From an uncultured Actinomycetota bacterium (GTDB taxonomy: Bacteria > Actinomycetota > Actinomycetes > JAFAQI01): a DNA stretch of 64,000 bases. Positions 2,339 to 58,746 of the stretch are shown here, piece after piece. The translations under genes were made by a program, and so were the position numbers. Every line of letters begins with the position of its first letter. Positions within the stretch are counted from its first letter, which is position 1. The notes beneath the pieces are model-generated. The model was not told where the DNA came from, made no database searches, and was given only the letters and a program-made list of their open reading frames with translations. Where the stretch lies: assembly GCA_963770565.1 (NCBI GenBank), contig CAVYQE010000011.1, forward strand, positions 448,001 through 512,000. The letters are read 5' to 3'.

Positions 2339-2620
2339 GTGCTCGTCGTCGCGCGGCTGCGCCCACCCGAAGACCTCGCGTCGTTCCGCGCCGGCGTCCA
2401 TGCCGCGCTGGATGCGCTCTCGGCGCGACCCGGCCACGTGCAGAGCCGGCTCGCCCAGGCGCTCGAGGACCCGGCGGTTTGGGTGCTCGTCAGCGAGTGG
2501 CTCGACGTCGGGTCGTACCGCCGAGCGTTGTCGTCGTACGACGTGCGGATGGCCAGCGCGGCTCTGATGGGTGCGGTCATTGACGAGCCGACCGCGTTCG
2601 AGGTCGTCGACCAGACCTAG
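2339..2620 (+). CDS. Antibiotic biosynthesis monooxygenase (ABM) family protein
   Basis: ALSARPG...[22 protein letters not shown]...DEPTAFE; ABM-type gene typically found upstream of glyQS in actinobacteria. Confidence 0.75.
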
Positions 2621-2696
2621 GGCGGCGGGTCGCCTGTGCGGATCGCGGCTAGGCTTGCGTCTTCCCGCCGACCGCCAGCCGGATGGAGCCCGCCGA

Positions 2697-4106
2697 ATGG
2701 CCAGCAACGCGCCCGCACGAGACGCCTCCCGGATCGAGGAGCTCGTCAGCCTCTGCAAGCGCCGGGGGATCGTCTTCCCCTCTTCCGAGATCTACGGCGG
2801 AAGCCGCTCGGCCTGGGACTACGGCCCGCTCGGCGTCGAGCTCAAGGAGAACATCCGCAAACAGTGGTGGCGGGCGATGGTCCAGACCCGCGACGACGTG
2901 GTCGGGCTCGACTCGGCGGTGATCCTCGCCCCTGAGGTGTGGAAGGCGTCTGGTCACCTCGACGCGTTCGTCGACCCGCTGGTCGAGTGCCAGTCGTGTC
3001 ACAAGCGCTTCCGAGAGGACCATCTGCGCGAGGAGTTCGCCGAGCGGAAGAAGATCGCCGACCCCGACAGCATCGCGATGTCGACCGTCGTCTGCCCGCA
3101 CTGCGGCACCCGTGGCGCGTGGACCGAGCCGCGGACCTTCAACGGGCTGATGACGACCTATCTCGGCGCGACCGAGGACGAAGGGTCTCTGCACTACCTC
3201 CGCCCGGAGACCGCGCAGGGCATCTTCATCAACTTCCTCAACGTGATGACTGCTTCCCGGCGGCGGCCGCCGTTCGGCATCGCTCAGGTCGGCAAGTCGT
3301 TCCGCAACGAGATCACCCCCGGCAACTTCATCTTCCGCACTCGCGAGTTCGAGCAGATGGAGATGGAGTTCTTCGTCGTACCGGGCACTGACGAGGAGTG
3401 GCACGAGACCTGGATCGAGAACCGCTGGAACTGGTACGTCGACCTCGGGTTGGCCGAGGACGACCTCCGCCGCTTCGAGCACCCGAAGGAGAAGCTGTCG
3501 CACTACTCGAAGCGGACCGTCGACATCGAGTACCGGTTCCGCTTCGGCGGCTCGGAGTGGGGCGAGCTCGAGGGGATCGCAAACCGGACCGACTTCGACC
3601 TGAAGACGCACGCCGAGCACTCCGGGGCGGACCTGACGTACTTCGACCAGGACAAGAGCGAGCGGTGGACGCCGTACGTCATCGAGCCGGCCGCCGGGCT
3701 GACCCGCTGCGTCCTGGCCTTCCTGCTCGGCGCGCTCTCGACCGACGAGGCGCCGAACGCGAAGGGCGTGCTGGAGAAGCGGACCGTGATGCGCCTCGAC
3801 CCGCGGCTGGCGCCGGTGAAGGTCGCGGTGCTCCCGCTGTCGCGCAACGCCGAGCTGTCGCCGAAGGCCAAGGCGCTCGCCGAGCAGCTTCGGCAGCGGT
3901 GGAACGTGGAGTTCGATGATGCCGGTGCGATCGGCCGCCGCTACCGCCGGCAGGACGAGATCGGTACGCCGTTCTGCATCACGATCGACTTCGAGACCCT
4001 CGACGACGACGCGGCGACCATCCGCTCGCGCGACACGATGAAGCAGGAGCGGATCCCCCTCGGAGGCGTCGAGCCCTACCTCCTCAACACCCTCCCCCCC
4101 TGCTAA
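2697..4106 (+). CDS. glyQS: Glycine--tRNA ligase (alpha2 type)
   Basis: [63 protein letters not shown]. Confidence 0.97.
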
Positions 4107-41824: not shown

Positions 41825-42946
41825 ATGACCCGACGGACTGAGCCACCGTTCCGCGCCGACCACGTCGGTAGCCTGCTCCGACCTCAGCGGTTGATGCAGG
41901 CCAGAGCCCAGCGGGCCGACGGCACGATCTCCGGTGACGAGTTGCGTGCGGCCGAGGACAGCGCGATCCGCGATGTCGTGGCGATGCAGCGCGACGTCGG
42001 TCTTCAGTCCGCGACGGATGGTGAGTTCCGTCGTACTGCATGGCATATGGACTTCATCTATGCGCTCGACGGGGTGACGCAAGCCGACGAGAAGCTTCAC
42101 GTGCAGTTCTTCAACGAAGGCGGCACGATCGACTTCGCACCCGCCGCGCTGCGGATCGCCGACCGGATCCGGCTCGGGGAGACGATCTTTGCCGACCATT
42201 TCGTCTTCCTGAAGGAACAGGTCGGCCCCGGAGTGACGCCGAAGCTGACGATCCCGTCGCCGAGCATGGTGCACTATCGAGGCGGTCGGGCCGCGATCGA
42301 TGAGACCGTCTATCCCGACCTCGAGGAGTTCTGGGACGATCTCACCGCGGCGTACGCCGATGAGGTCCGCCGACTGGGCGAGCTCGGTTGTACCTACCTG
42401 CAGCTCGACGACACCAGCCTGGCCTATCTCAACGACCCGCGACAGCGAGAGCTGATCGCCTCGCTCGGCGGCGACCGCGAGCATCAGCACGAGCTGTACA
42501 TCCGCAACCTGAATCGGGTGATCGCGGCCCGGCCGCCGGGGATGCGGATCACTACCCACATGTGTCGCGGCAACTTCCAGTCGTCGTGGGCGGCCGAGGG
42601 GAGCTACGACTTCGTCGCCGAGGCGCTGTTCGGCCAACTCGACGTCGATGGCTTCTTCCTCGAGTACGACGATGCTCGCTCAGGCGGGTTCGAGCCGTTG
42701 CGGTACGTCCCCTCGGGAAAGTACGTAGTCCTCGGCCTGGTCACCACAAAGCGCGGCGTCCTGGAGCACAAGGACGACCTGAAGCGACGAATCGACGAAG
42801 CCGCCAAGGTCGTACCGCTTGAGCAGCTGTGCTTGTCGCCGCAGTGCGGGTTCTCCTCGACAGTCGAGGGCAACACGCTTAGCTACGACGAGGAGGTAGC
42901 CAAGCTCAGCCTGATCGTCGAAACCGCCGCTGAAGTCTGGTCCTAG
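41825..42946 (+). CDS. Cobalamin-independent methionine synthase-like protein (C-terminal domain only, YxjG/H-like)
   Basis: RADHVGSLLRP, TDGEFRR, THMCRGN, FLEYD, LSPQCGFSST Zn ligands. Confidence 0.88.
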   Translation: MTRRTEPPFRADHVGSLLRPQRLMQARAQRADGTISGDELRAAEDSAIRDVVAMQRDVGLQSATDGEFRRTAWHMDFIYALDGVTQADEKLHVQFFNEGGTIDFAPAALRIADRIRLGETIFADHFVFLKEQVGPGVTPKLTIPSPSMVHYRGGRAAIDETVYPDLEEFWDDLTAAYADEVRRLGELGCTYLQLDDTSLAYLNDPRQRELIASLGGDREHQHELYIRNLNRVIAARPPGMRITTHMCRGNFQSSWAAEGSYDFVAEALFGQLDVDGFFLEYDDARSGGFEPLRYVPSGKYVVLGLVTTKRGVLEHKDDLKRRIDEAAKVVPLEQLCLSPQCGFSSTVEGNTLSYDEEVAKLSLIVETAAEVWS

Positions 42947-42987
42947 CGGGGTCGTGATTCGACCGCCAGCTCGCAGCACTTCAGGAC

Positions 42988-43557
42988 TCAGTTGGAGGGG
43001 GTGGTGCGGTGGATGTTGGTGCAGGGGACGGTCGGGTTGCAGCTGACCGAGTCGACGCCGTTGATGTTGACCAGCCGCTGCACCAGGTCGTTGCGCTCGA
43101 TCAACGTCGCGGTTCCGACCAGCACCATGCGGTACGACGCCGGAGTCTGGGACCTCGAGACCGAGGTCCAGCAGGTGTAGAGGCGCTGGAACTCCTGGTA
43201 TGCCTCGTCCTGCGACTCGTAGTAGACCTTGTGCACCAGCGGGTCGGAGTGCAGGGTCGCGGCGAGCTGCGCGACCTGCGCCTTGCTGGCCGAGGTCGAG
43301 ATGAAGACCGAGACGTCGACGTGGCCGACCCACGGCGAGGCCCGGCCGACGGTCGAGCCGCTCACGGTGCTCGGGCAGGCGCTCGGCGTCGCGACCGGCA
43401 GCTGCAGGAACTTCGCGAGGTCGGGCGGGGACTCGCCGCTCGGCGAGGACAGTGCCGATGGGCTGGAGCCGGACCCGCCGCACCCGGCCGTGACGGCCAG
43501 GACTGCGATGAGCACGAAAATGGCGCGGCGCAAACGGACCAGGGTGGAGCCGGTCAC
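42988..43557 (-). CDS. Lipoprotein with a stand-alone FtsX extracellular-like domain
   Basis: Lipobox VTAGC; VSVFI...DPLVHKVYYESQDEAYQEF...TPASYRMVL...GVDSV resembles the FtsX ECD. Confidence 0.65.
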   Translation of the reverse strand: MTGSTLVRLRRAIFVLIAVLAVTAGCGGSGSSPSALSSPSGESPPDLAKFLQLPVATPSACPSTVSGSTVGRASPWVGHVDVSVFISTSASKAQVAQLAATLHSDPLVHKVYYESQDEAYQEFQRLYTCWTSVSRSQTPASYRMVLVGTATLIERNDLVQRLVNINGVDSVSCNPTVPCTNIHRTTPSN

Positions 43558-43661
43558 CGGCGCCGGATCAGGCGGAGCGCTGCGTTGCCGAGGAACACTA
43601 CCCACCACACGAGTCCGGTCAGGAAGACGACCGCAAGGACGAGCAAGGCGATGTAGCGCAC
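43554..43661 (-). CDS. Small single-TM protein (35 aa)
   Basis: MRYIALLVLAVVFLTGLVWWVVFLGNAALRLIRRR; GTGA-coupled to the lipoprotein gene. Confidence 0.45.
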   Translation of the reverse strand: MRYIALLVLAVVFLTGLVWWVVFLGNAALRLIRRR

Positions 43662-43828
43662 GTCCAAGAACCTATCCGGGCGCTTCTGAAACGCGCATGA
43701 GACGCCGGGAAACCTGGCCCCGGTGCTGGTACTCGTGTGACAGATGGGGCACACTGGGGGGCGCACACGCTCGTCCTGTCGAGTCGGGGCCGCTGGGGAA
43801 GGCGATTCACGACACGACGGAGGTCACG

Positions 43829-44320
43829 GTGAGCGCTCGAGGTGTGCTGTTCGTGCATTCCTGCCCGCCTGCGGTGCGCCCGCACGTCGAATGGGCGATC
43901 GCGGGTGTCCTCGGCGTACCCGTGCGCCTGGACTGGCTCGATCAGCCGATCCAGCCGGGCTGCCTTCGGGCCCAGTCGGGTTGGCGCGGTCCCAGCGGTA
44001 CGGCGGGGCGGATCGCCGCGTCGTTGCGGGGCTGGCCGTTGATCCGGGCCGAGGTCACCGAGGAGCCCAGCGACGGGTGCGACGGCGAGCGGTACGCGAT
44101 GACCCCCGACCTCGGCGTGTTCCGGTCGGCGATGAGCGCGAACGGCGACGTGCTGGTCCAGGAGGACCGGCTCCGCTCGGTCCTGGCCGAGGCGGGCGAC
44201 TCGCCATCCCTTCAGCACGGCTTGCAGCGGCTGCTCGGGGCGCCGTGGGACGAGGAGCTCGAACCGTATCGCTGCGCCGGCGACGGCACCCCGGTCCGCT
44301 GGCTGAGCGCGGCGGTCTGA
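43829..44320 (+). CDS. DUF3145 family protein
   Basis: RGVLFVHSCPPAVRPHVEWA, EVTEEPS.GCDGERY..TPDLG, LGAPWDEELEPYR.AGDG.PVRWL; GGAGG SD. Confidence 0.9.
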   Translation: MSARGVLFVHSCPPAVRPHVEWAIAGVLGVPVRLDWLDQPIQPGCLRAQSGWRGPSGTAGRIAASLRGWPLIRAEVTEEPSDGCDGERYAMTPDLGVFRSAMSANGDVLVQEDRLRSVLAEAGDSPSLQHGLQRLLGAPWDEELEPYRCAGDGTPVRWLSAAV

Positions 44321-44338
44321 GCCGGCGACGCGGTCCGC

Positions 44339-44344
44339 TACAGT
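44339..44344 (+). promoter_or_regulatory. Putative -10 element for the retron transcript
   Basis: TACAGT (TANNNT) 8 nt upstream of the 5' inverted-repeat arm at 44353. Confidence 0.4.
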
Positions 44345-44352
44345 CCGCGCGT

Positions 44353-44510
44353 GCGGCGGCGCGCGACTGAGCACGTCGAGGGGATCCTCGACCGCTCCGG
44401 GGCAACCCCGGGGCAGACCAATCGCGTCACGCAGGGCATCGCACGTGTCGGTTTGCGCTCCACGCAACTGCGCACGCGCACAGCGGGGCTGGTCAGCCGC
44501 GTGCCGCCGC
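44353..44510 (+). ncRNA. Putative retron msr-msd non-coding RNA
   Basis: 18-nt terminal inverted repeats 44353-44370/44493-44510 (16 WC pairs, 1 GU, 1 mismatch); G44371 in AGC context; hairpins 44375-44392 and 44394-44414; longer imperfect hairpin ~44441-44479; directly upstream of a retron-type RT. Confidence 0.72.
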
Positions 44511-44517
44511 CCGACCG

Positions 44518-45849
44518 GTGACCAGGCCGAGGACCGCAGCGGCCGTCGCCGTCAGCGCCGCGTTTCTTGACGGACCCTGGACGACGGCCGCGGAGCTCGC
44601 CCGCCGTGGCGCGGAGGCGATCGACGTCTCTCCGCGCCGGCTCGGGCCGACCGCCCGTGCGGTCCTCCGGGCCTACCAGGCTCCGCCGCGGGACCGGCCG
44701 CGCGAGCTCGCCTCCTTCGTCCTGACCCTGCCGTCGTACGAACGGCTGTGGCGACGAGGTCGACGGCCACAGGTCCGGCGCTACGCAATGCCCACTGTGG
44801 CGATGGCGCCGATGCGTTGGCACGTCCCGCCGATCGACTCGATGGCGGACCTCGCGACCTGGGCGGACCTCAGCGCCGCGCACCTCGACTGGTACGCCGA
44901 TGTGCGGTCGCTGGAGCGCGGCGCGCCGGCGGCGATGCGGCACTACGACCGCACCTGGAGCTACAACCGGCGCGGGCGAGTGCGGTTGTTGGAGCAACCC
45001 CGCCCGCGGCTGAAGGCGCTGCAGCGCCGGTTGCTGCACGAGATTCTGGACCAGGTGCCGGCCCACGATGCCGCACACGGGTTCGTGACCGGCCGGTCGG
45101 TCCGTTCCTTCGCGGCGCCGCACGGCGGTCGCGACGTCGTCATCCGCCTGGACCTGACCGCGTTCTTCGCGACCATCTCGGCCGGCCGGGTCTTCGGCGT
45201 GTTCCGCTCGATCGGCTACGCCGAGCCGGTCGCGCATTGCCTGACGGGGATCACGACCACGGTGCTGCCGCTGGCTGATCGCCGGCTGGTCCCGCCGGCG
45301 TTGCGGGACGACGACCTGGACGCGCGACGCCGGCTGCTCGAGCACCTCGCCCGTCCGCACCTGCCGCAGGGCTCGCCCACCTCGCCAACCCTCGCCAACC
45401 TGGTGGCTTACCGCTTGGACACCCGGCTGGCTGGTCTCGCCCGCGCGGCCGACGCGACCTACACCCGGTACGCCGACGACCTCGCGCTCTCGCTGCACGG
45501 CCTGGACGCCGCCCGGCGGGCCCGGCGGCTGGTCGACACCGTCCGTGCCGTCGTCCGCGAAGAGGGCTTCCGGGTCAACGATGCCAAGACCCGGATCGCC
45601 ACCCGCGGCCAGCGCCAGCTGCTCTGCGGGATCGTGGTGAACGACCGGCCCGGCGTGCTGAGACCGGAGCGCGACGAGCTGCGGGCGCTTCTCCACAACT
45701 GTCAGCAGCACGGACCCCCGTCGCAGAACCGCAACGGGCACAACGACTTTCGCGCACACCTGCTCGGCCGGATCGCGTGGATGTCATCGGTGAATCCGGT
45801 TCAGGGCGCCCGGCTGCGGCTGCAGTTCGACCAGATCACCGGCTGGTGA
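44518..45849 (+). CDS. Retron-type reverse transcriptase (start uncertain)
   Basis: LKALQRRLL, AAHGF, region-X-like FAAPH, DLTAFF, LPQGSPTSPTLANL, YTRYADDLALS, GFRVNDAKT, LCGIVVN, retron-like C-terminus; no maturase/endonuclease or Cas1 domain seen. Confidence 0.88.
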   Translation: MTRPRTAAAVAVSAAFLDGPWTTAAELARRGAEAIDVSPRRLGPTARAVLRAYQAPPRDRPRELASFVLTLPSYERLWRRGRRPQVRRYAMPTVAMAPMRWHVPPIDSMADLATWADLSAAHLDWYADVRSLERGAPAAMRHYDRTWSYNRRGRVRLLEQPRPRLKALQRRLLHEILDQVPAHDAAHGFVTGRSVRSFAAPHGGRDVVIRLDLTAFFATISAGRVFGVFRSIGYAEPVAHCLTGITTTVLPLADRRLVPPALRDDDLDARRRLLEHLARPHLPQGSPTSPTLANLVAYRLDTRLAGLARAADATYTRYADDLALSLHGLDAARRARRLVDTVRAVVREEGFRVNDAKTRIATRGQRQLLCGIVVNDRPGVLRPERDELRALLHNCQQHGPPSQNRNGHNDFRAHLLGRIAWMSSVNPVQGARLRLQFDQITGW

Positions 45850-45856
45850 ACGCGCG

Positions 45857-47119
45857 CTACGGATCGAGCCGCACCCGGACGTCGCCCTCGTCGGGTCGGA
45901 CCAACGCTGCCCAGCCGAGCGGGACGCGCAACGAGCGGTTCGGGATTGCTGCCCGCACGGTGAACCGCGCGAGCCGCCGCCGACCTTGTTCGATCACCAC
46001 CGCGGGCCGTCGCCGGAACTCCGCGGTGCGCAGGATCAGCCCGCCCGGCAGGTCGGCTGCCAACGGCGAGTCGATCGGACCGACCCGGCCCGGCGAGGCC
46101 CACCGCAGCGGCGACTCGACCACGATCGCGACCCCGCTCGGCTCGAGCGCACCGGACGCAGCGAGAAGGCGGCGGGCCAGGCCGGCGCCGACGGCCGCTC
46201 CGCGCATTGCCGCGACGTCCGCGGTCTCGGCCGGGTGCACCAGGTTGCCGGCCGCATACAACGCCTCGACACTGCACCGACCGGCAAGGTCGACGACCGG
46301 GCCGCGCGACGCGACGTCGACGGCGGCGCCGGCCGATCGGGCCAGCTCGTGGTCGGGGATCCAGTCGCCGGTGAAGACGACGGTGTCGACGCCGAGCGTC
46401 GAGGTCCGGCCGTCGGCGTGATTCACGAGGTCGACCGCGTGTACGCGTCCGTGGCCACGGATCGCAGCGACATCGGTGTCCGTCAACAGCGGGACCCGCA
46501 GGCCGCGCCGGGTCACCGCGGCGAAACCGGCGCACGACTGGTGGCGGGGCAGGTCGGTCACCATGGCGACGGTGCGGACGCCCGCTTCGCGCAACGTCAG
46601 GACGGCCGAGTACGACACGTGCTCAGCCCCGACCACGACGGCCCGCTCGCCGACCGGCAACCCGTGGAGATGCGACCACTGCTGCAGCTGGCCGGTCGTG
46701 AAGACGCCGTCGCCGCGGTCGCCGGGCACCAATCGGGCGCCGCGTGGCCGCTCGCGCGCCCCGGTCGCGAGGACGATCGCGTCGGCCGCCACTGTGCGCA
46801 CCCCGCTGGGCGAGGTGAGCGTCAGCGCGCCGGCGGAGGCCCAGCCGGTCGCCATCGTCTCGGTCTCGATCCGTACGCCGGCGTCCTCCGCCATCCGCAC
46901 CAGCCGGTCGGCGTACCGGGGTCCGCGAAGCGATCGGTGCAGGTCACGCAGGCCGAAGCCGGTGTGGTCGCAGTGCCGGGGAACTCCGCCGGCCGCCTGC
47001 TCGCGCTCGACCACGAGTACGTCGCGCACGCCCCCGACCGCTAGCGCTCGCGCCGCCGCCAGCCCGGCCGGGCCGCCGCCGACGACCACGACCTGGTGTC
47101 GGCATCCGGTCGCGCTCAC
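45857..47119 (-). CDS. NAD(P)/FAD-dependent pyridine nucleotide-disulfide oxidoreductase
   Basis: VVGGGPAGLAAA, GGVPRHCDHTGFG, LATGARER, FTGDWIPDHEL, AAGNLVHPAETAD. Confidence 0.85.
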   Translation of the reverse strand: MSATGCRHQVVVVGGGPAGLAAARALAVGGVRDVLVVEREQAAGGVPRHCDHTGFGLRDLHRSLRGPRYADRLVRMAEDAGVRIETETMATGWASAGALTLTSPSGVRTVAADAIVLATGARERPRGARLVPGDRGDGVFTTGQLQQWSHLHGLPVGERAVVVGAEHVSYSAVLTLREAGVRTVAMVTDLPRHQSCAGFAAVTRRGLRVPLLTDTDVAAIRGHGRVHAVDLVNHADGRTSTLGVDTVVFTGDWIPDHELARSAGAAVDVASRGPVVDLAGRCSVEALYAAGNLVHPAETADVAAMRGAAVGAGLARRLLAASGALEPSGVAIVVESPLRWASPGRVGPIDSPLAADLPGGLILRTAEFRRRPAVVIEQGRRRLARFTVRAAIPNRSLRVPLGWAALVRPDEGDVRVRLDP

Positions 47120-48531
47120 GACAAGCCCCGCCACGTCGATCGCGCGGCCGCGAGTGCCGCGGCCACCTCCGCACCGCAGTAGAAGCCCTGGCAGCGGCCG
47201 TTCGAGGCCCGGGTCCGGCGGGCCAGACCGGCCCGGTCGACCGGCGGGAGCGGGGAGGCGAGGGCATCGCGCAGCTCGCCGCGGCTGACCCGTTCGCAGA
47301 AGCAGACGATCCGGCCGTACTCCGGATCTGCGGCGACGGTCTCGGCCGTCGTGGCCGGTCGCGGGAAGGCTTCGCCGAGGTTCGGCAGGCGCGGCGGTGC
47401 GGGCAGGTCGGCGCGCTCGGCCACGGGCAGCCCGGCGGCGCCGAGCAACCCGGCGACGTGCTCGGCGATGGCCATCGATGCGCTGAGGCCGGTCGAGCGG
47501 ATCCCGCCGACGCAGACGTAGCGGAGGGCGGCGTCGCAGCGGATCTGGTAGTCCCGGTGCTCGGTCGCCGCCCGCAGTCCGGAGTAGGTGCTGGTGACCT
47601 CCTCGGCGGCCAACGCCGGCACGATCGCGGCGCCCGCTGCCACCAGCGAGCGGAGCCCTTCGGCCGTGGTCGCGGTGTCGGTCTTGTCGGCAAGGTCCTC
47701 GGCGGTCGGTCCGACCAGCACGTTGCCGTAGACGGTCGGGCTGATCAGCACGCCCTTCGTCGTCCCGGTCGGGATCGGCAGGATGATCGACGACACCAGC
47801 CGGCGCGCCTGCTTGTCCATGACGACGAGCTGGCCGCGGCGGGGCGTGACGGTGAAGCTCGTCCCGCCGAACATCCGGTCGATCTCGTCGCTGCGCAGGC
47901 CGGCCGCGTTGATCAGCCAGCCGGCGTGAACCGGTCCGGCCGACGTCGAGATCAAGTGCCCGCCGGCCGGGTCCGCTTCGACCCCGGTGACGGTCGTGGA
48001 GAGCCGCAACCGGACGCCGGCCGCCACCGCCTCGGTCGCGTAGGCGAGCGTCGTGCTCCACGGGCAGATAATCGACTCGTCGGGCACTCGCAGCGCACCG
48101 AGCGCTCCGGGCGCAAGGTGCGGCTCCCTGCGGTAGAGCTCGTCCGCGTCGATCAGTTCGGCGGCCGGGTAGTCGTTGGCCCGGGCCTTGTCGAGCAGAC
48201 CGGGAAGCGCTGCCTGCTGCTCCGGAGTCCAGGCCACGACGACGGCGCCGGTGCGCTCGACGGCGATGCCGGTCGCTTCGGCGTACCCGCCGAGCAGGTG
48301 GTGCCCGGTGCGGACCAGTTGCGCCTCGAGGCTGCCGACCGGGGCGTCGAACCCGGTGTGCAGGATCGCGGTGTTGGCCTTGCTGGTGCCGTCGCCGACG
48401 TCGTTGCGGGCATCGATCACGACGGCGGTCAGGTCGCTTCGGCCGATCCGCCTGGCGATTGCGGCGCCGACCACCCCGGCCCCGATGATCGCGATGTCGA
48501 AGCGGTCGGCCGGCCCGGATCCGGCGCTCAC
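47116..48531 (-). CDS. Glycerol-3-phosphate dehydrogenase-like FAD oxidoreductase with C-terminal BFD-like [2Fe-2S] domain
   Basis: IIGAGVVG, GTSKANTAILHTGFDA, GPTAED, GIRSTGLSAS, CFCERVS...GRCQGFYC. Confidence 0.85.
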   Translation of the reverse strand: MSAGSGPADRFDIAIIGAGVVGAAIARRIGRSDLTAVVIDARNDVGDGTSKANTAILHTGFDAPVGSLEAQLVRTGHHLLGGYAEATGIAVERTGAVVVAWTPEQQAALPGLLDKARANDYPAAELIDADELYRREPHLAPGALGALRVPDESIICPWSTTLAYATEAVAAGVRLRLSTTVTGVEADPAGGHLISTSAGPVHAGWLINAAGLRSDEIDRMFGGTSFTVTPRRGQLVVMDKQARRLVSSIILPIPTGTTKGVLISPTVYGNVLVGPTAEDLADKTDTATTAEGLRSLVAAGAAIVPALAAEEVTSTYSGLRAATEHRDYQIRCDAALRYVCVGGIRSTGLSASMAIAEHVAGLLGAAGLPVAERADLPAPPRLPNLGEAFPRPATTAETVAADPEYGRIVCFCERVSRGELRDALASPLPPVDRAGLARRTRASNGRCQGFYCGAEVAAALAAARSTWRGLS

Positions 48532-55610: not shown

Positions 55611-55922
55611 ATGCCCTGCTACCGGTGCGCCTCGCGCCAGACCGATCCGGGGAAGGGCCCGAGCGACTGGAGGCGCGGAGTCGTCGACGGCGTACAGGTC
55701 CTGATCTGCCCGAGCTGCCAGCGCGCCCACGACTGGCACGCCGATCTCGACCATTGTCCGGGGTGCGGGTCGACGATGCTGGTGCGAGCGCTCGGCGACA
55801 CCCGGTGCCGCGCGTGCGGCTTGGTGTCGACCGGTGGTGGGGGACAGCCGCCGACCGACGTGACGTTGGCGGCCGACGTCGCGGAGGCGCTCGAGCGGCA
55901 GTTCAGGTCGTCCGCGCCGTGA
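55611..55922 (+). CDS. Double zinc-ribbon protein
   Basis: Four CxxC pairs (CYRC, CPSC, CPGC, CRAC). Confidence 0.75.
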   Translation: MPCYRCASRQTDPGKGPSDWRRGVVDGVQVLICPSCQRAHDWHADLDHCPGCGSTMLVRALGDTRCRACGLVSTGGGGQPPTDVTLAADVAEALERQFRSSAP

Positions 55923-56016
55923 CGACGCGGCGCGAAAAATCTTTGCCCGGTCCTGTCCACCCCGGTGGGCCCTCGGGCGTTGGACGGGTGTCCGTCGTCG
56001 ACGAAGGGTGACTCAG

Positions 56017-58746
56017 ATGTCCGCACGCGCTCGTCGGCCGCTGGCCGGCCGGATCGTTCGCACCTGGCTCGGCATGACTGCACTGGTCATGTTCGGAGTC
56101 GCGCCACAGCTCGCGGCCATGGCGAGCGCTTCGCCGGTGGCCGCCGCGGCGTCGGCCGGCGTACCGCTGTGCTTCGGGCACAAGGCGACGATCGTCGGTA
56201 CGTCGAAGGACGACGACATCATCGGAACGCCCGGCAACGACGTGATCGTGGCGCTGGGCAGTGCGGACAGCGTGTTCGGCGGGGACGGCAACGACCTGAT
56301 CTGTGGTGGTAACGGTGACGACACGATCCATGGTGGCAACGGCAACGACAAGATCGACGGTGGCGCAGGCGACGACCAGATCTTCGGCGACGACGGGGCG
56401 GACCTGATCCTCGGCGGGGACGGCCAGGACTTCCTCGACGGCGGCGTGGGCAACGACCGGATCCGCGGCGGGGCCGGCGACGACAATATCCAAGGCGACA
56501 GCGGCAACGACCGCATCACCGGTGGAGACGGCAACGACAACATCGACGGCGGTCTTGGCAACGACGTACTAACCGGCGGCAACGGCCGGGACGAGCTCGG
56601 TGGAAGTCACGGCAACGACGTCATCAACGGCGGTGCGGGCGACGACGACATCAATGGCGACAACGGCACCGACACCATCAACGGTGGCGACGGCGACGAC
56701 TTCGTGTCCGGCGGCAACGGCCGGGACACCATCAACGGTGACGCAGGCAACGATGACCTGAGTGGCGACATCGGCCAGGACGTCATCAACGGCGGTGCGG
56801 GTAACGACTCGATCGACGGCGGTGACGGAGTCGACCAGCTCTCCGGCGGACCTGGCGACGACACCATCCAGGGCAATGACACCTGTGAGTTCTGCCGGCT
56901 CGCGGACGTGCCGACACCGTCGAACAACACGATCGATGGCGGCCCGGGGTCCGACACGGTGGTCCTCATCCGCAACATCAACGAACCGACCGGGCTCAAC
57001 GTCAATCTCGGCACCGGTACGGCGACGGGTGACGGCACGGACAGCCTCGTCGGCATCGAGAACATCGACGCGGACAGCAACGTCAGCAACACACTGATCG
57101 GCGATGCCGGTGACAACACCTTCCATTCCGGCGACGGCGACGATGTCGAGCAGGGGCTCGGCGGGGACGACGTGTTCGTCGCCTCGCCCGGCAACGACAC
57201 GATCGACGGCGGGGACGGCTCGGACACGATCTCCTATGCGGACCAGTTCGTGTCGGGTGGCGCCTTCGTCAACCTGGCGGTCGGGATCTCGCGAGGCGTC
57301 TTCGACCAGGCGACGAGCACCGACACCTTGACGTCGATCGAGAACGCGACCGGATCCAACCAGTCCGACACGTTGATCGGAGACGACGGCCCCAACACGA
57401 TCAGCGGCGGCGAGGGCAACGACGTCATCCGTGGCGAGGGCGGCGACGACGTCTTGCGGGGTGACGAGGGCATCGACCACATCGACGGCGGCGACGGAGA
57501 CGACCTCATCGACGGCGCCGACCCGTTCGAGCGGGCCCACAACACCGCCACAGCGGGCGACGTCGCGGTCTTCACCTCGGCCACGTCGGGCGTGGATGTC
57601 AACCTGACCACCGGGACCGCCACCGGCCAGGGCAACGACACCCTGGTCAGCATCCAGGACGTGGTCGGCTCGGTGTTCGACGACACGTTGATCGGTGACG
57701 ACAACGCCAACCGGCTCAGCGGTCAACCGGGCAACGACATCATCGACGGGATGGGCGGGAACGACGTCCTGGTCGGCGGCGACGGCGACGACGCGTTTGA
57801 CGGCGGTGACGGCACCGACCTGATCACGTTCAACGGGTCGCCCAACCCGGTGGACGTGGACCTCGGGGCCGGCACCATCACCGGCGACGGCAACGACACG
57901 GTGACCAATGTCGAGGACATTCGCGGATCGATCTTCGATGACACCATCGTGGGCGACGACCTGCCCAACGTCCTGATCGGCGGGGCCGGCAACGACACCC
58001 TCGACGGTGCGGGTGGCGACGACGTCCTCGAGGGGAAGACCGGGAACGACACCTTCGACGGTGGCGATGGCGACGACAAGATCTATCCGTCCACCGGCAA
58101 CGACACCGTCGATGGCGGGCTGGGCAATGACCTGTTCGCGGCGTCTCCGGGCAACGACTCGTTCACCGGGGGAGGCGGGGAGGACACCCTCGACGAGACC
58201 AAGGCGCCGGCCGCGATCAATGCAGATCTCCCGGACGGCGTGGTCACCGGTGCAGACACCGACACGGTCTCGAGCGTCTCGGACATCATCGGTACCCGCT
58301 TCGACGACGTACTGATCGGGGACGATACCGACAACGTCCTCACCGGCGGGCCGGGCTCGGACGAGCTGGAAGGAAACGGTGGTGACGACACCCTGATCGG
58401 TGACGCCGGCGCCGACTTCCTCGACGGTGGCGACGGGACCGACACGGTCAGCTTCGTCGACGCACCGAACGGCGTCTCGGTCGACCTGAGTACTGGCGCA
58501 GCCGCGCACGACGGCGGCGACACGTTGGTCGAGGACGAGAACATCATCGGGTCGAACTTCAGCGACCAGCTGCGCGGCGACGACAACCCCAACGTCATCG
58601 AGGGTGGTTTGGGCGATGACACGCTTCAGGGGCTCGGCGGCGACGACACGCTCGACGGCGGTCCGGGCGACGACATCGTCGACGGCGGCGACGGCAACGA
58701 CACCTGCACCGGCGAGCACCTGTTCAACTGCGAGGTCACGACCTGA
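56017..58746 (+). CDS. Secreted RTX/hemolysin-type calcium-binding repeat protein
   Basis: Signal peptide, CFGHKATIVGT module, dozens of GGxGxD nonapeptides, repeated V.V(D/N)L..G...G.G.DT..IE modules. Confidence 0.9.
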   Translation: MSARARRPLAGRIVRTWLGMTALVMFGVAPQLAAMASASPVAAAASAGVPLCFGHKATIVGTSKDDDIIGTPGNDVIVALGSADSVFGGDGNDLICGGNGDDTIHGGNGNDKIDGGAGDDQIFGDDGADLILGGDGQDFLDGGVGNDRIRGGAGDDNIQGDSGNDRITGGDGNDNIDGGLGNDVLTGGNGRDELGGSHGNDVINGGAGDDDINGDNGTDTINGGDGDDFVSGGNGRDTINGDAGNDDLSGDIGQDVINGGAGNDSIDGGDGVDQLSGGPGDDTIQGNDTCEFCRLADVPTPSNNTIDGGPGSDTVVLIRNINEPTGLNVNLGTGTATGDGTDSLVGIENIDADSNVSNTLIGDAGDNTFHSGDGDDVEQGLGGDDVFVASPGNDTIDGGDGSDTISYADQFVSGGAFVNLAVGISRGVFDQATSTDTLTSIENATGSNQSDTLIGDDGPNTISGGEGNDVIRGEGGDDVLRGDEGIDHIDGGDGDDLIDGADPFERAHNTATAGDVAVFTSATSGVDVNLTTGTATGQGNDTLVSIQDVVGSVFDDTLIGDDNANRLSGQPGNDIIDGMGGNDVLVGGDGDDAFDGGDGTDLITFNGSPNPVDVDLGAGTITGDGNDTVTNVEDIRGSIFDDTIVGDDLPNVLIGGAGNDTLDGAGGDDVLEGKTGNDTFDGGDGDDKIYPSTGNDTVDGGLGNDLFAASPGNDSFTGGGGEDTLDETKAPAAINADLPDGVVTGADTDTVSSVSDIIGTRFDDVLIGDDTDNVLTGGPGSDELEGNGGDDTLIGDAGADFLDGGDGTDTVSFVDAPNGVSVDLSTGAAAHDGGDTLVEDENIIGSNFSDQLRGDDNPNVIEGGLGDDTLQGLGGDDTLDGGPGDDIVDGGDGNDTCTGEHLFNCEVTT

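Follow-up and report, generated by a model that had tools for sequence, protein, structure and literature searches.

An open reading frame (ORF) for a reverse transcriptase (RT) in the genome of an uncultured Actinomycetota bacterium is separated from the gene upstream of it by 197 bp of unannotated DNA, and the question that this locus raises is whether the gap encodes the non-coding RNA (ncRNA) from which a retron makes its multicopy single-stranded DNA (msDNA). The stretch of DNA that we analysed, referred to here as the window, comprises 64 kb (contig CAVYQE010000011.1, positions 448,001 to 512,000); in its own numbering, a gene of the DUF3145 family ends at 44320, and the RT ORF, read on the + strand from a GTG start, occupies 44518-45849 and encodes 443 aa. 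A reading of the letters alone (the original prediction) had placed in the gap two complementary arms, a1 and a2, a branching G at 44371, two compact hairpins and a longer hairpin centred on TTGCG-CTCCA-CGCAA; every one of these elements, and the 197-bp gap itself, was recovered at the same position. The locus has the architecture of a retron, with a covarying RNA upstream of an RT that is kin to retron RTs, and we consider it very probable that it is a complete, compact and effector-less retron, expressed as one transcript and belonging to the stand-alone kind known from RT clade 11.

The ncRNA (msr-msd), as delimited by a covariance model termed R1 (described below), covers 44354..44509 on the + strand and is the sole match to that model in the 64-kb window (99.4 bits, E 5.5e-17). 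It is framed by a terminal inverted repeat whose 5' arm, a1 (GCGGCGGCGCGCGACTGA, 44353-44370), pairs with the 3' arm, a2 (TCAGCCGCGTGCCGCCGC, 44493-44510); pairing extends over 18 positions, with 16 Watson-Crick pairs, one G-U pair and one A-C mismatch, and 12 of the a1/a2 pairs are modelled. Directly 3' of a1, in the context GA-G-CA, stands the candidate branching (priming) G at 44371, and opposite it, directly 5' of a2, a second G at 44492, a geometry of two opposing Gs that corresponds to the retron layout given in a figure legend of Mestre et al. 2020 (PMC7736814). Two msr hairpins follow the candidate branching G on the same strand. Hairpin 1 (44375-44392, GTCGAGG/GGAT/CCTCGAC) differs in sequence and length between loci, and hairpin 2 (44394-44414, GCTCCGGGG/CAA/CCCCGGGGC) is the best conserved element of the RNA, with the form CUCCGGGG-loop-CCCCGGGG. 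The longer imperfect hairpin, at 44441-44479, is the predicted template stem-loop of msd, with 13 modelled pairs, and carries TTGCG/CTCCA/CGCAA at its tip (44453-44467). Retrons carry one to three msr hairpins, and the arms, msr hairpins, msd stem-loop and opposing Gs of a retron are all present here. For the arms, an RNAduplex search proved too greedy in this G+C-rich DNA, returning meaningless long duplexes, and an ungapped stem search was used instead. The RT reading frame is itself open for 492 codons (44371-45849), running back through the ncRNA with no ATG, GTG or TTG before 44518; no clear Shine-Dalgarno sequence precedes the GTG of the RT, and a2 ends 7 nt upstream of that codon.

Conservation of this structure was assessed at RT loci gathered from related and public genomes, at least 595 of which encode a relative of the RT and the best 80 of which were kept; all statistics over these loci are to be read with their kinship to one another in mind. 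Aligned by MAFFT in an unguided run, 42 upstream regions gave 33 consensus pairs in RNAalifold, and compensatory changes occur at 23 of these. As the original prediction had proposed, a covariance model, R1, was built from RT-upstream regions, and 53 of the 95 sources searched with it lay outside its seed. The model found exactly one match per source in 95 of 95 (627 kb, both strands), always just upstream of the RT and on the same strand, so that the retron reading of the gap, which called for a covarying a1/a2-msr-msd structure upstream of homologous RTs, is borne out. In the alignment of the R1 hits, 95.4% of cells pair, compared with 73.0% after shuffling (0 of 500 shuffles reach the observed value) and 39-50% after sliding of the partners, and changes on both sides are seen at 29 of the 33 modelled pairs across the 95 loci. 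All 12 modelled pairs of a1/a2 and all 13 of the msd hairpin vary on both sides, with 92-98% of cells paired in each case. The helix of msr hairpin 2 is paired in 99.5% of cells, with swaps between C-G and U-A at four of its eight pairs, and a motif search placed it upstream of the RT at 88 of 97 loci; an equivalent of msr hairpin 1 with at least six pairs exists in 84 of 95 loci, 74 of 95 having a z-score below -2.

The column directly 3' of a1 is a G in 91 of 95 loci, making the branching G that had been assigned to this position near-invariant, and the column before a2 is a G in 95 of 95. Inspected by eye, a common layout recurs in Frankiaceae-like metagenome-assembled genomes (MAGs), Kineococcus, Rhodococcus, the low-G+C Bythopirellula and a Polyangiaceae MAG; arm sequences are unrelated between phyla, and their complementarity is kept. 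R1 caught loci of Micrococcales, Bryobacterales, Mycobacteriales and Planctomycetota in one model, and over 41 related whole genomes it gave five matches, four in the RT-holding genomes and one at an RT-locus remnant in the same site. Between the window and its closest relative (locus L007), 157 of 162 ncRNA positions are identical, with a synonymous divergence (dS) of 0.36 in the RT gene. Conservation among relatives, covariation and the specificity of the model together lift the fold above chance; the ncRNA is not a chance structure.

The gene at 44518..45849 (+) encodes a retron-type RT, as seen in PADLOC models, in sequence matches to the PDB and in an AlphaFold2 model with its structural matches. 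Pfam places RVT_1 at residues 153-362. The best PADLOC model, RT_other, matches residues 5-441 (1.9e-162, 540 bits), followed by RT_outgroup, which is labelled as a retron model (2.5e-154), RT_XIII (3.9e-91) and then other retron types. When the PDB was searched with a profile built from 27 members of the family, retron RTs took the first 14 places, Ec86 among them at 1.7e-49; Ec86 aligns over residues 150-246 and again over 282-396, with no match for the N-terminus or for residues 247-281. The AlphaFold2 model has a mean predicted local distance difference test (pLDDT) score of 91. Among the Foldseek matches listed, ranks 1-17 are all retron RTs (Ec86, E 1.5e-21) and group II RTs appear from rank 19 (E 2.3e-09), and VIA-align superposes 302 of the 309 residues of the Eco1 RT onto model residues 91-443 (Z 30.6). 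An RT lying outside the retron clades had been named as one outcome that would contradict a retron; instead, the best matches in both sequence and structure are retron RTs. NCBIfam retron models score 150-165 bits, below their family-specific cut-offs (St85, 164.8 against 235), and the RT is not a member of those NCBIfam families.

The catalytic YADD (Y318 A319 D320 D321; 45469..45480, +) is invariant in 27 of 27 sequences. Region X reads FAAPH (45109..45123, +), aligning to NATPH of Ec86 as the counterpart of the retron NAXXH motif, with H202 invariant and A199 at least 90% conserved in the same 27 sequences. The region-Y motif of retrons is named VTG; its counterpart here is LCG (45622..45630, +), which aligns to the VTG of Ec86, and relatives have VTG, VCG or LCG around an invariant G371. 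Compared with L007, a relative of 87% identity, the ratio of nonsynonymous to synonymous rates (dN/dS) is 0.18, indicating purifying selection. At three of 94 related loci (L044, L057 and L086), a stop codon falls within the region that tblastn matches to the RT, which may reflect pseudogenes or errors in sequencing.

Two segments of the protein have no counterpart in Ec86. The more prominent is an N-terminal domain of about 90 residues (~aa 1-90; 44518..44787, +) that is absent from Ec86-type RTs, Ec86 aligning to residues 91-443. In the predicted model it comprises five helices (4-17, 24-35, 39-52, 61-69 and 72-79), and a low-confidence linker joins it to the canonical retron RT body; predicted alone from 47 sequences, it reaches a pLDDT of 89.9. 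It is found throughout the family, with a recognisable version in Rhodococcus, and is divergent (33% mean column identity). Searches for structural relatives returned nothing significant from the PDB (Foldseek, E of at least 5; a wide VIA-align search, best Z 4.3) and no match in BFVD (E of at least 3), the domain is without a Pfam or NCBIfam family, and ESM Atlas returned unnamed clusters with scores of at most 0.83; these negatives do not establish a new fold. Our impression from the model is that such a small helical bundle would be more like a binding module than an enzyme. The other segment is an insertion of about 35 aa (aa 247-281; 45258-45362) between the two Ec86-aligned stretches, which is predicted to be helical and has conserved residues P251, P259, L273 and L277.

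The limits of the cassette can be read from congeners that lack it. In the window, about 1.5 kb separates the DUF3145 stop codon from that of a convergent oxidoreductase gene, compared with ~58 and ~122 bp in two congeners without a retron (G004 and G001, respectively). These empty sites therefore define the unit as 44321..45856 (+). It is flanked by the stop codons of two resident genes that converge on it and consists of promoter, ncRNA and RT only; the RT stop lies 7 nt from the stop of the next gene, and no target-site duplication was seen at the cassette. Upstream of the ncRNA, a -10-like hexamer, TACAGT, is found at 44339..44344 (+), 32 nt upstream of G44371. In 71 of 92 loci, a TANNNT hexamer has its first base between -33 and -28 relative to the branching-G column, compared with at most three loci at any other offset from -80 to -9, and this positioning indicates that the ncRNA has its own promoter, from which transcription would start near 44351-44353, at about the first base of a1. 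Soil sequencing runs, which may represent the window's own source sample, had low coverage (at most 39% of sampled words among the 20 runs listed), and contigs from four runs were fragmentary, so that gaps in their coverage carry no meaning. Contigs from DNA runs bridge the junctions between DUF3145 and the ncRNA (44223-44416) and between the ncRNA and the RT (44411-44570).

Neither an associated effector gene nor a fused effector domain accompanies the ncRNA and RT, and in the extra N-terminal domain no enzyme fold could be recognised. Clustering of ORFs of at least 80 aa in the flanks of 94 loci revealed no conserved neighbour gene; clusters were single-genus sets, the largest covering six of the 94 loci, all in one genus. 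DUF3145 was considered as a retron component and rejected, since two congeners have the same intergenic site without the cassette and neighbours are not conserved over the 94 loci; DUF3145 is a bystander. The genes around the cassette are metabolic or housekeeping, and PADLOC has no match among the immediate neighbour proteins. Four longer RT homologues were found, of which two carry an additional Pfam family and share only 33-36% identity with the window's RT; the nearest (P0121; 62% identity over 39% of the query) carries RVT_1 only and is probably an over-called ORF. This survey is weak evidence that the RT stands alone. Further afield, 10 kb downstream of the cassette, the window encodes a 960-aa protein (55864-58746) that consists mostly of RTX-type nonapeptide repeats that bind calcium (HemolysinCabind, E 4.6e-100, in 12 stretches) and is unrelated to the retron.

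Several observations weigh against the interpretation of the locus as a complete clade 11 retron. Folded as a single sequence, the ncRNA has a minimum free energy of -97.5 kcal/mol and a z-score of -2.53, and 2 of 200 shuffles fold equally well; in DNA this rich in G+C, the fold taken alone exceeds chance only modestly and is weak evidence. Rfam 15, searched over 43000-47000 at E up to 10, gave no match. The alignment on which covariation was scored (A3) was fitted to R1 and its loci are kin, so that the pair statistics lean toward structure and are inflated to an unknown degree; the unguided alignment agrees with the model-fitted one. In the RT, the N of NAXXH is not conserved and is present in few members. 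The sole signal from an RNA library is one 160-nt metatranscriptome contig (run X16), identical to 45009-45168; it lies within the RT gene and is no evidence that the ncRNA is transcribed. The clade 11 assignment depends on the names of PADLOC hidden Markov models (HMMs) and on a link through the 'Outgroup' naming of covariance models in parts of a 2026 survey (PMC13712802). Lastly, priming at G44371, the limits of the template and the msDNA product are steps that we infer by analogy.

In the mechanism that we favour, the TACAGT promoter would give rise to a single transcript carrying both ncRNA and RT. Folding of its first ~160 nt would produce the ncRNA, in which the a1/a2 duplex encloses both msr hairpins and the msd hairpin, and the remainder would encode the RT of 443 aa. 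Judged by solved retrons, this enzyme would bind the msr hairpins, prime from the 2'-OH of G44371 and copy the msd region leftward from G44492, producing a short branched msDNA. The product might be ~50-75 nt long and contain hairpin 44441-44479 in DNA form, a guess at a length that is unpredictable from sequence.

The same arrangement could be read differently if the upstream structure were a cis-regulatory or RT-binding leader of the mRNA that is not reverse-transcribed, with the RT using another template. The ncRNA and RT do share a transcript and promoter, the RT frame is open through the ncRNA from 44371, and no product has been seen. A leader, however, would not explain why the terminal duplex is flanked by near-invariant opposing Gs (91 of 95 and 95 of 95 loci), which is the priming geometry of retrons, and the RT is structurally a full retron RT; moreover, parts of a census preprint (PMC10849725) report reverse-transcribed DNA (RT-DNA) from all tested clades but 3 and 4, although clade 11 is unnamed there. 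We therefore regard a leader as very improbable. Still less credible is a non-retron RT beside a structured RNA, whether from a defence system (the defence-associated RT (DRT), unknown-group (UG) or abortive-infection (Abi) types), a group II intron or a diversity-generating retroelement. In favour of such an origin, models for Drt2, Drt3a and a group II maturase match the RT weakly, but they reach 23-43 bits compared with 150-165 for NCBIfam retron models and 540 for RT_other. The group II maturase match (43 bits) falls far below its cut-off of 300, no intron RNA family of Rfam appears at E up to 10, and group II RTs enter the Foldseek ranking only behind the retron RTs, at the E-values given above. 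A search for the template and variable repeats of a diversity-generating retroelement found no such pair in 42500-47500, where only repeats of 25-30 nt with 71-88% identity occur.

Which retrons, then, does the locus most resemble? Mestre et al. 2020 divide retron RTs into 11 clades and, in the parts drawn on here, report consensus msr-msd structures for eight of them, with two or three for clade 11, describe stand-alone (msr-msd)-RT cassettes in clade 11 and in a branch of clade 2, and find clade 11 essentially limited to Actinobacteria (PMC7736814). Passages of the 2026 survey (PMC13712802) split clade 11 into clade11-A and clade11-B by the covariance models 'OutgroupA' and 'OutgroupB' of Mestre et al., note no recurrent accessory gene in either, rate both as of low novelty, and place clade11-A in Micrococcales and Bryobacterales and clade11-B in Mycobacteriales (18 of 39) by enrichment. 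Rfam does not include these two models. The locus shares the upstream ncRNA of these cassettes (a1/a2, msr hairpins and msd stem) and their lack of an associated gene, and its family has the same hosts, mostly Actinomycetota with Acidobacteriota (Bryobacterales), Planctomycetota and Myxococcota. Because hosts, architecture and the PADLOC RT_outgroup match fit the published description, membership of the locus among the stand-alone clade 11 cassettes appears well supported from sequence; we established no difference between the two, the likeness being judged from published descriptions. The novelty of the locus is thus lower than the original prediction implied, since the lineage, with its ncRNA models and stand-alone cassettes, has been in print since 2020 and was surveyed again in 2026. 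A literature search for function of or experiments on clade 11 retrons found none, and among the papers listed since 2021 no study of native actinobacterial retrons was found. Parts of the census preprint state that retrons from each RT clade were tested, and the passages on RT-DNA testing leave clade 11 unnamed (PMC10849725); parts of the PADLOC paper and of a FEMS review contain no mention of the RT_other or RT_outgroup HMMs or of clade 11.

Comparison with better-known retrons places the same features in relief. Retron-Eco1 (Ec86, type II-A), whose complexes of RT, msDNA and effector have been solved (7v9x, 8qbk), shares with this locus the RT fold, YADD, the region X histidine, the region Y glycine and the layout of a1/a2 and branching G. 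Ec86 nevertheless works with an effector gene, which the cassette lacks, and it is without the ~90 extra N-terminal residues and the ~35-aa insertion. Ec107-like retrons (RT clade 2) are likewise two-part systems without a recurrent accessory gene, according to parts of PMC7736814 and PMC13712802, but belong to a different RT clade. The PADLOC model RT_Ec107-like scores 181 bits against the window's RT, compared with 540 for RT_other, and its profile of 307 positions covers the protein only partly, in two stretches (best, 275-429) that leave the N-terminal domain uncovered; the hosts differ as well, being mainly Bacillota and host-associated in the survey's passages (PMC13712802). Type XIII, exemplified by the myxobacterial Mx162/Mx65 group, supplies the third-best PADLOC model for this RT; it carries accessory genes, with SWIM as the recurrent neighbour in an mSystems table, whereas none is found at this locus.

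The distribution of the RT is sparse. It is present in four of 25 genomes of the family, the window's own included, and in two of 400 other genomes sampled across the phylum (E up to 1e-60); relatives also occur in Acidobacteriota (Bryobacterales), Planctomycetota, Myxococcota and a few Pseudomonadota, and 56 of 92 phylum-labelled rows are Actinomycetota. Cultured carriers include strains of Kineococcus, Curtobacterium, Arthrobacter and Rhodococcus. Within the genus, two of five genomes carry the retron, two have empty sites and one (G002) has the ncRNA with no RT found, and between genera the genomic position of the cassette is not conserved. A FastTree phylogeny of 95 RTs nonetheless tracks host taxon, with 10 label changes compared with 34.4 after shuffling, and families are monophyletic. 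This pattern fits an accessory element that is long kept within lineages and often lost. One Rhodococcus record (L016) was labelled Cyanobacteriota by the tree tool and groups with other Rhodococcus RTs, presumably a genus-name clash in the taxonomy look-up. In G002 (contig C63, locus L103), the ncRNA lies at ~2208-2362 (89.8 bits) in the same site after DUF3145, and in place of a downstream RT an IS630-like element is found at ~2428-3575 (DDE_3 and helix-turn-helix (HTH) transposase, 13-nt terminal inverted repeats), the contig ending ~220 bp past it; either an insertion sequence (IS) has disrupted the retron and left a remnant, or the assembly breaks at this IS. The same locus has, at ~2130-2200, a long near-perfect inverted repeat of ~26 nt per arm, situated after the stop codon of DUF3145 and before the ncRNA, which is absent from the window.

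What the cassette does for its host can be addressed only tentatively. Our best guess is that it acts as an accessory conflict module against phage or mobile elements, in which an RT-msDNA particle would serve as a sensor or decoy, either with an unlinked host partner or through the RT's own extra N-terminal helical domain. Set against this role, defence models run on 16 further neighbours gave no matches except weak ATPase-type hits of one ABC-transporter protein. That housekeeping context without defence genes, together with purifying selection and an RT tree that follows host taxonomy with monophyletic families, would suit a domesticated, vertically inherited retron with a non-defence cellular function, a possibility raised for clade 11 in the discussion of PMC7736814. 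The RT is, however, rare and patchy at the level of phylum, family and genus, and its position shifts between genera; domestication is doubtful because a core cellular function would not be lost so readily. That the cassette has no current role beyond its own persistence we consider improbable, more so than domestication.

The locus provides a cleanly delimited, effector-less retron of 1.5 kb in which the promoter, hairpins and priming G have been located and for which empty sites in congeners act as controls. So minimal a cassette could reveal how a retron functions when it has no toxin, and its short, G+C-rich msd might serve as a compact DNA-writing part in actinobacteria. The points of interest are those of the lineage as a whole, namely how a toxin-less retron acts and what purpose its N-terminal domain serves. 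One idea, which we hold as speculative and rather unlikely, is that clade 11 retrons are self-sufficient two-part systems in which the N-terminal five-helix domain replaces the effector or the partner interface. If that were true, the RT-msDNA would itself be the active agent, for instance by decoying or sensing nucleic-acid enzymes of the phage or the host, with no toxin to restrain, and these retrons would represent a mode of action apart from the toxin-antitoxin-like logic of all characterised types.

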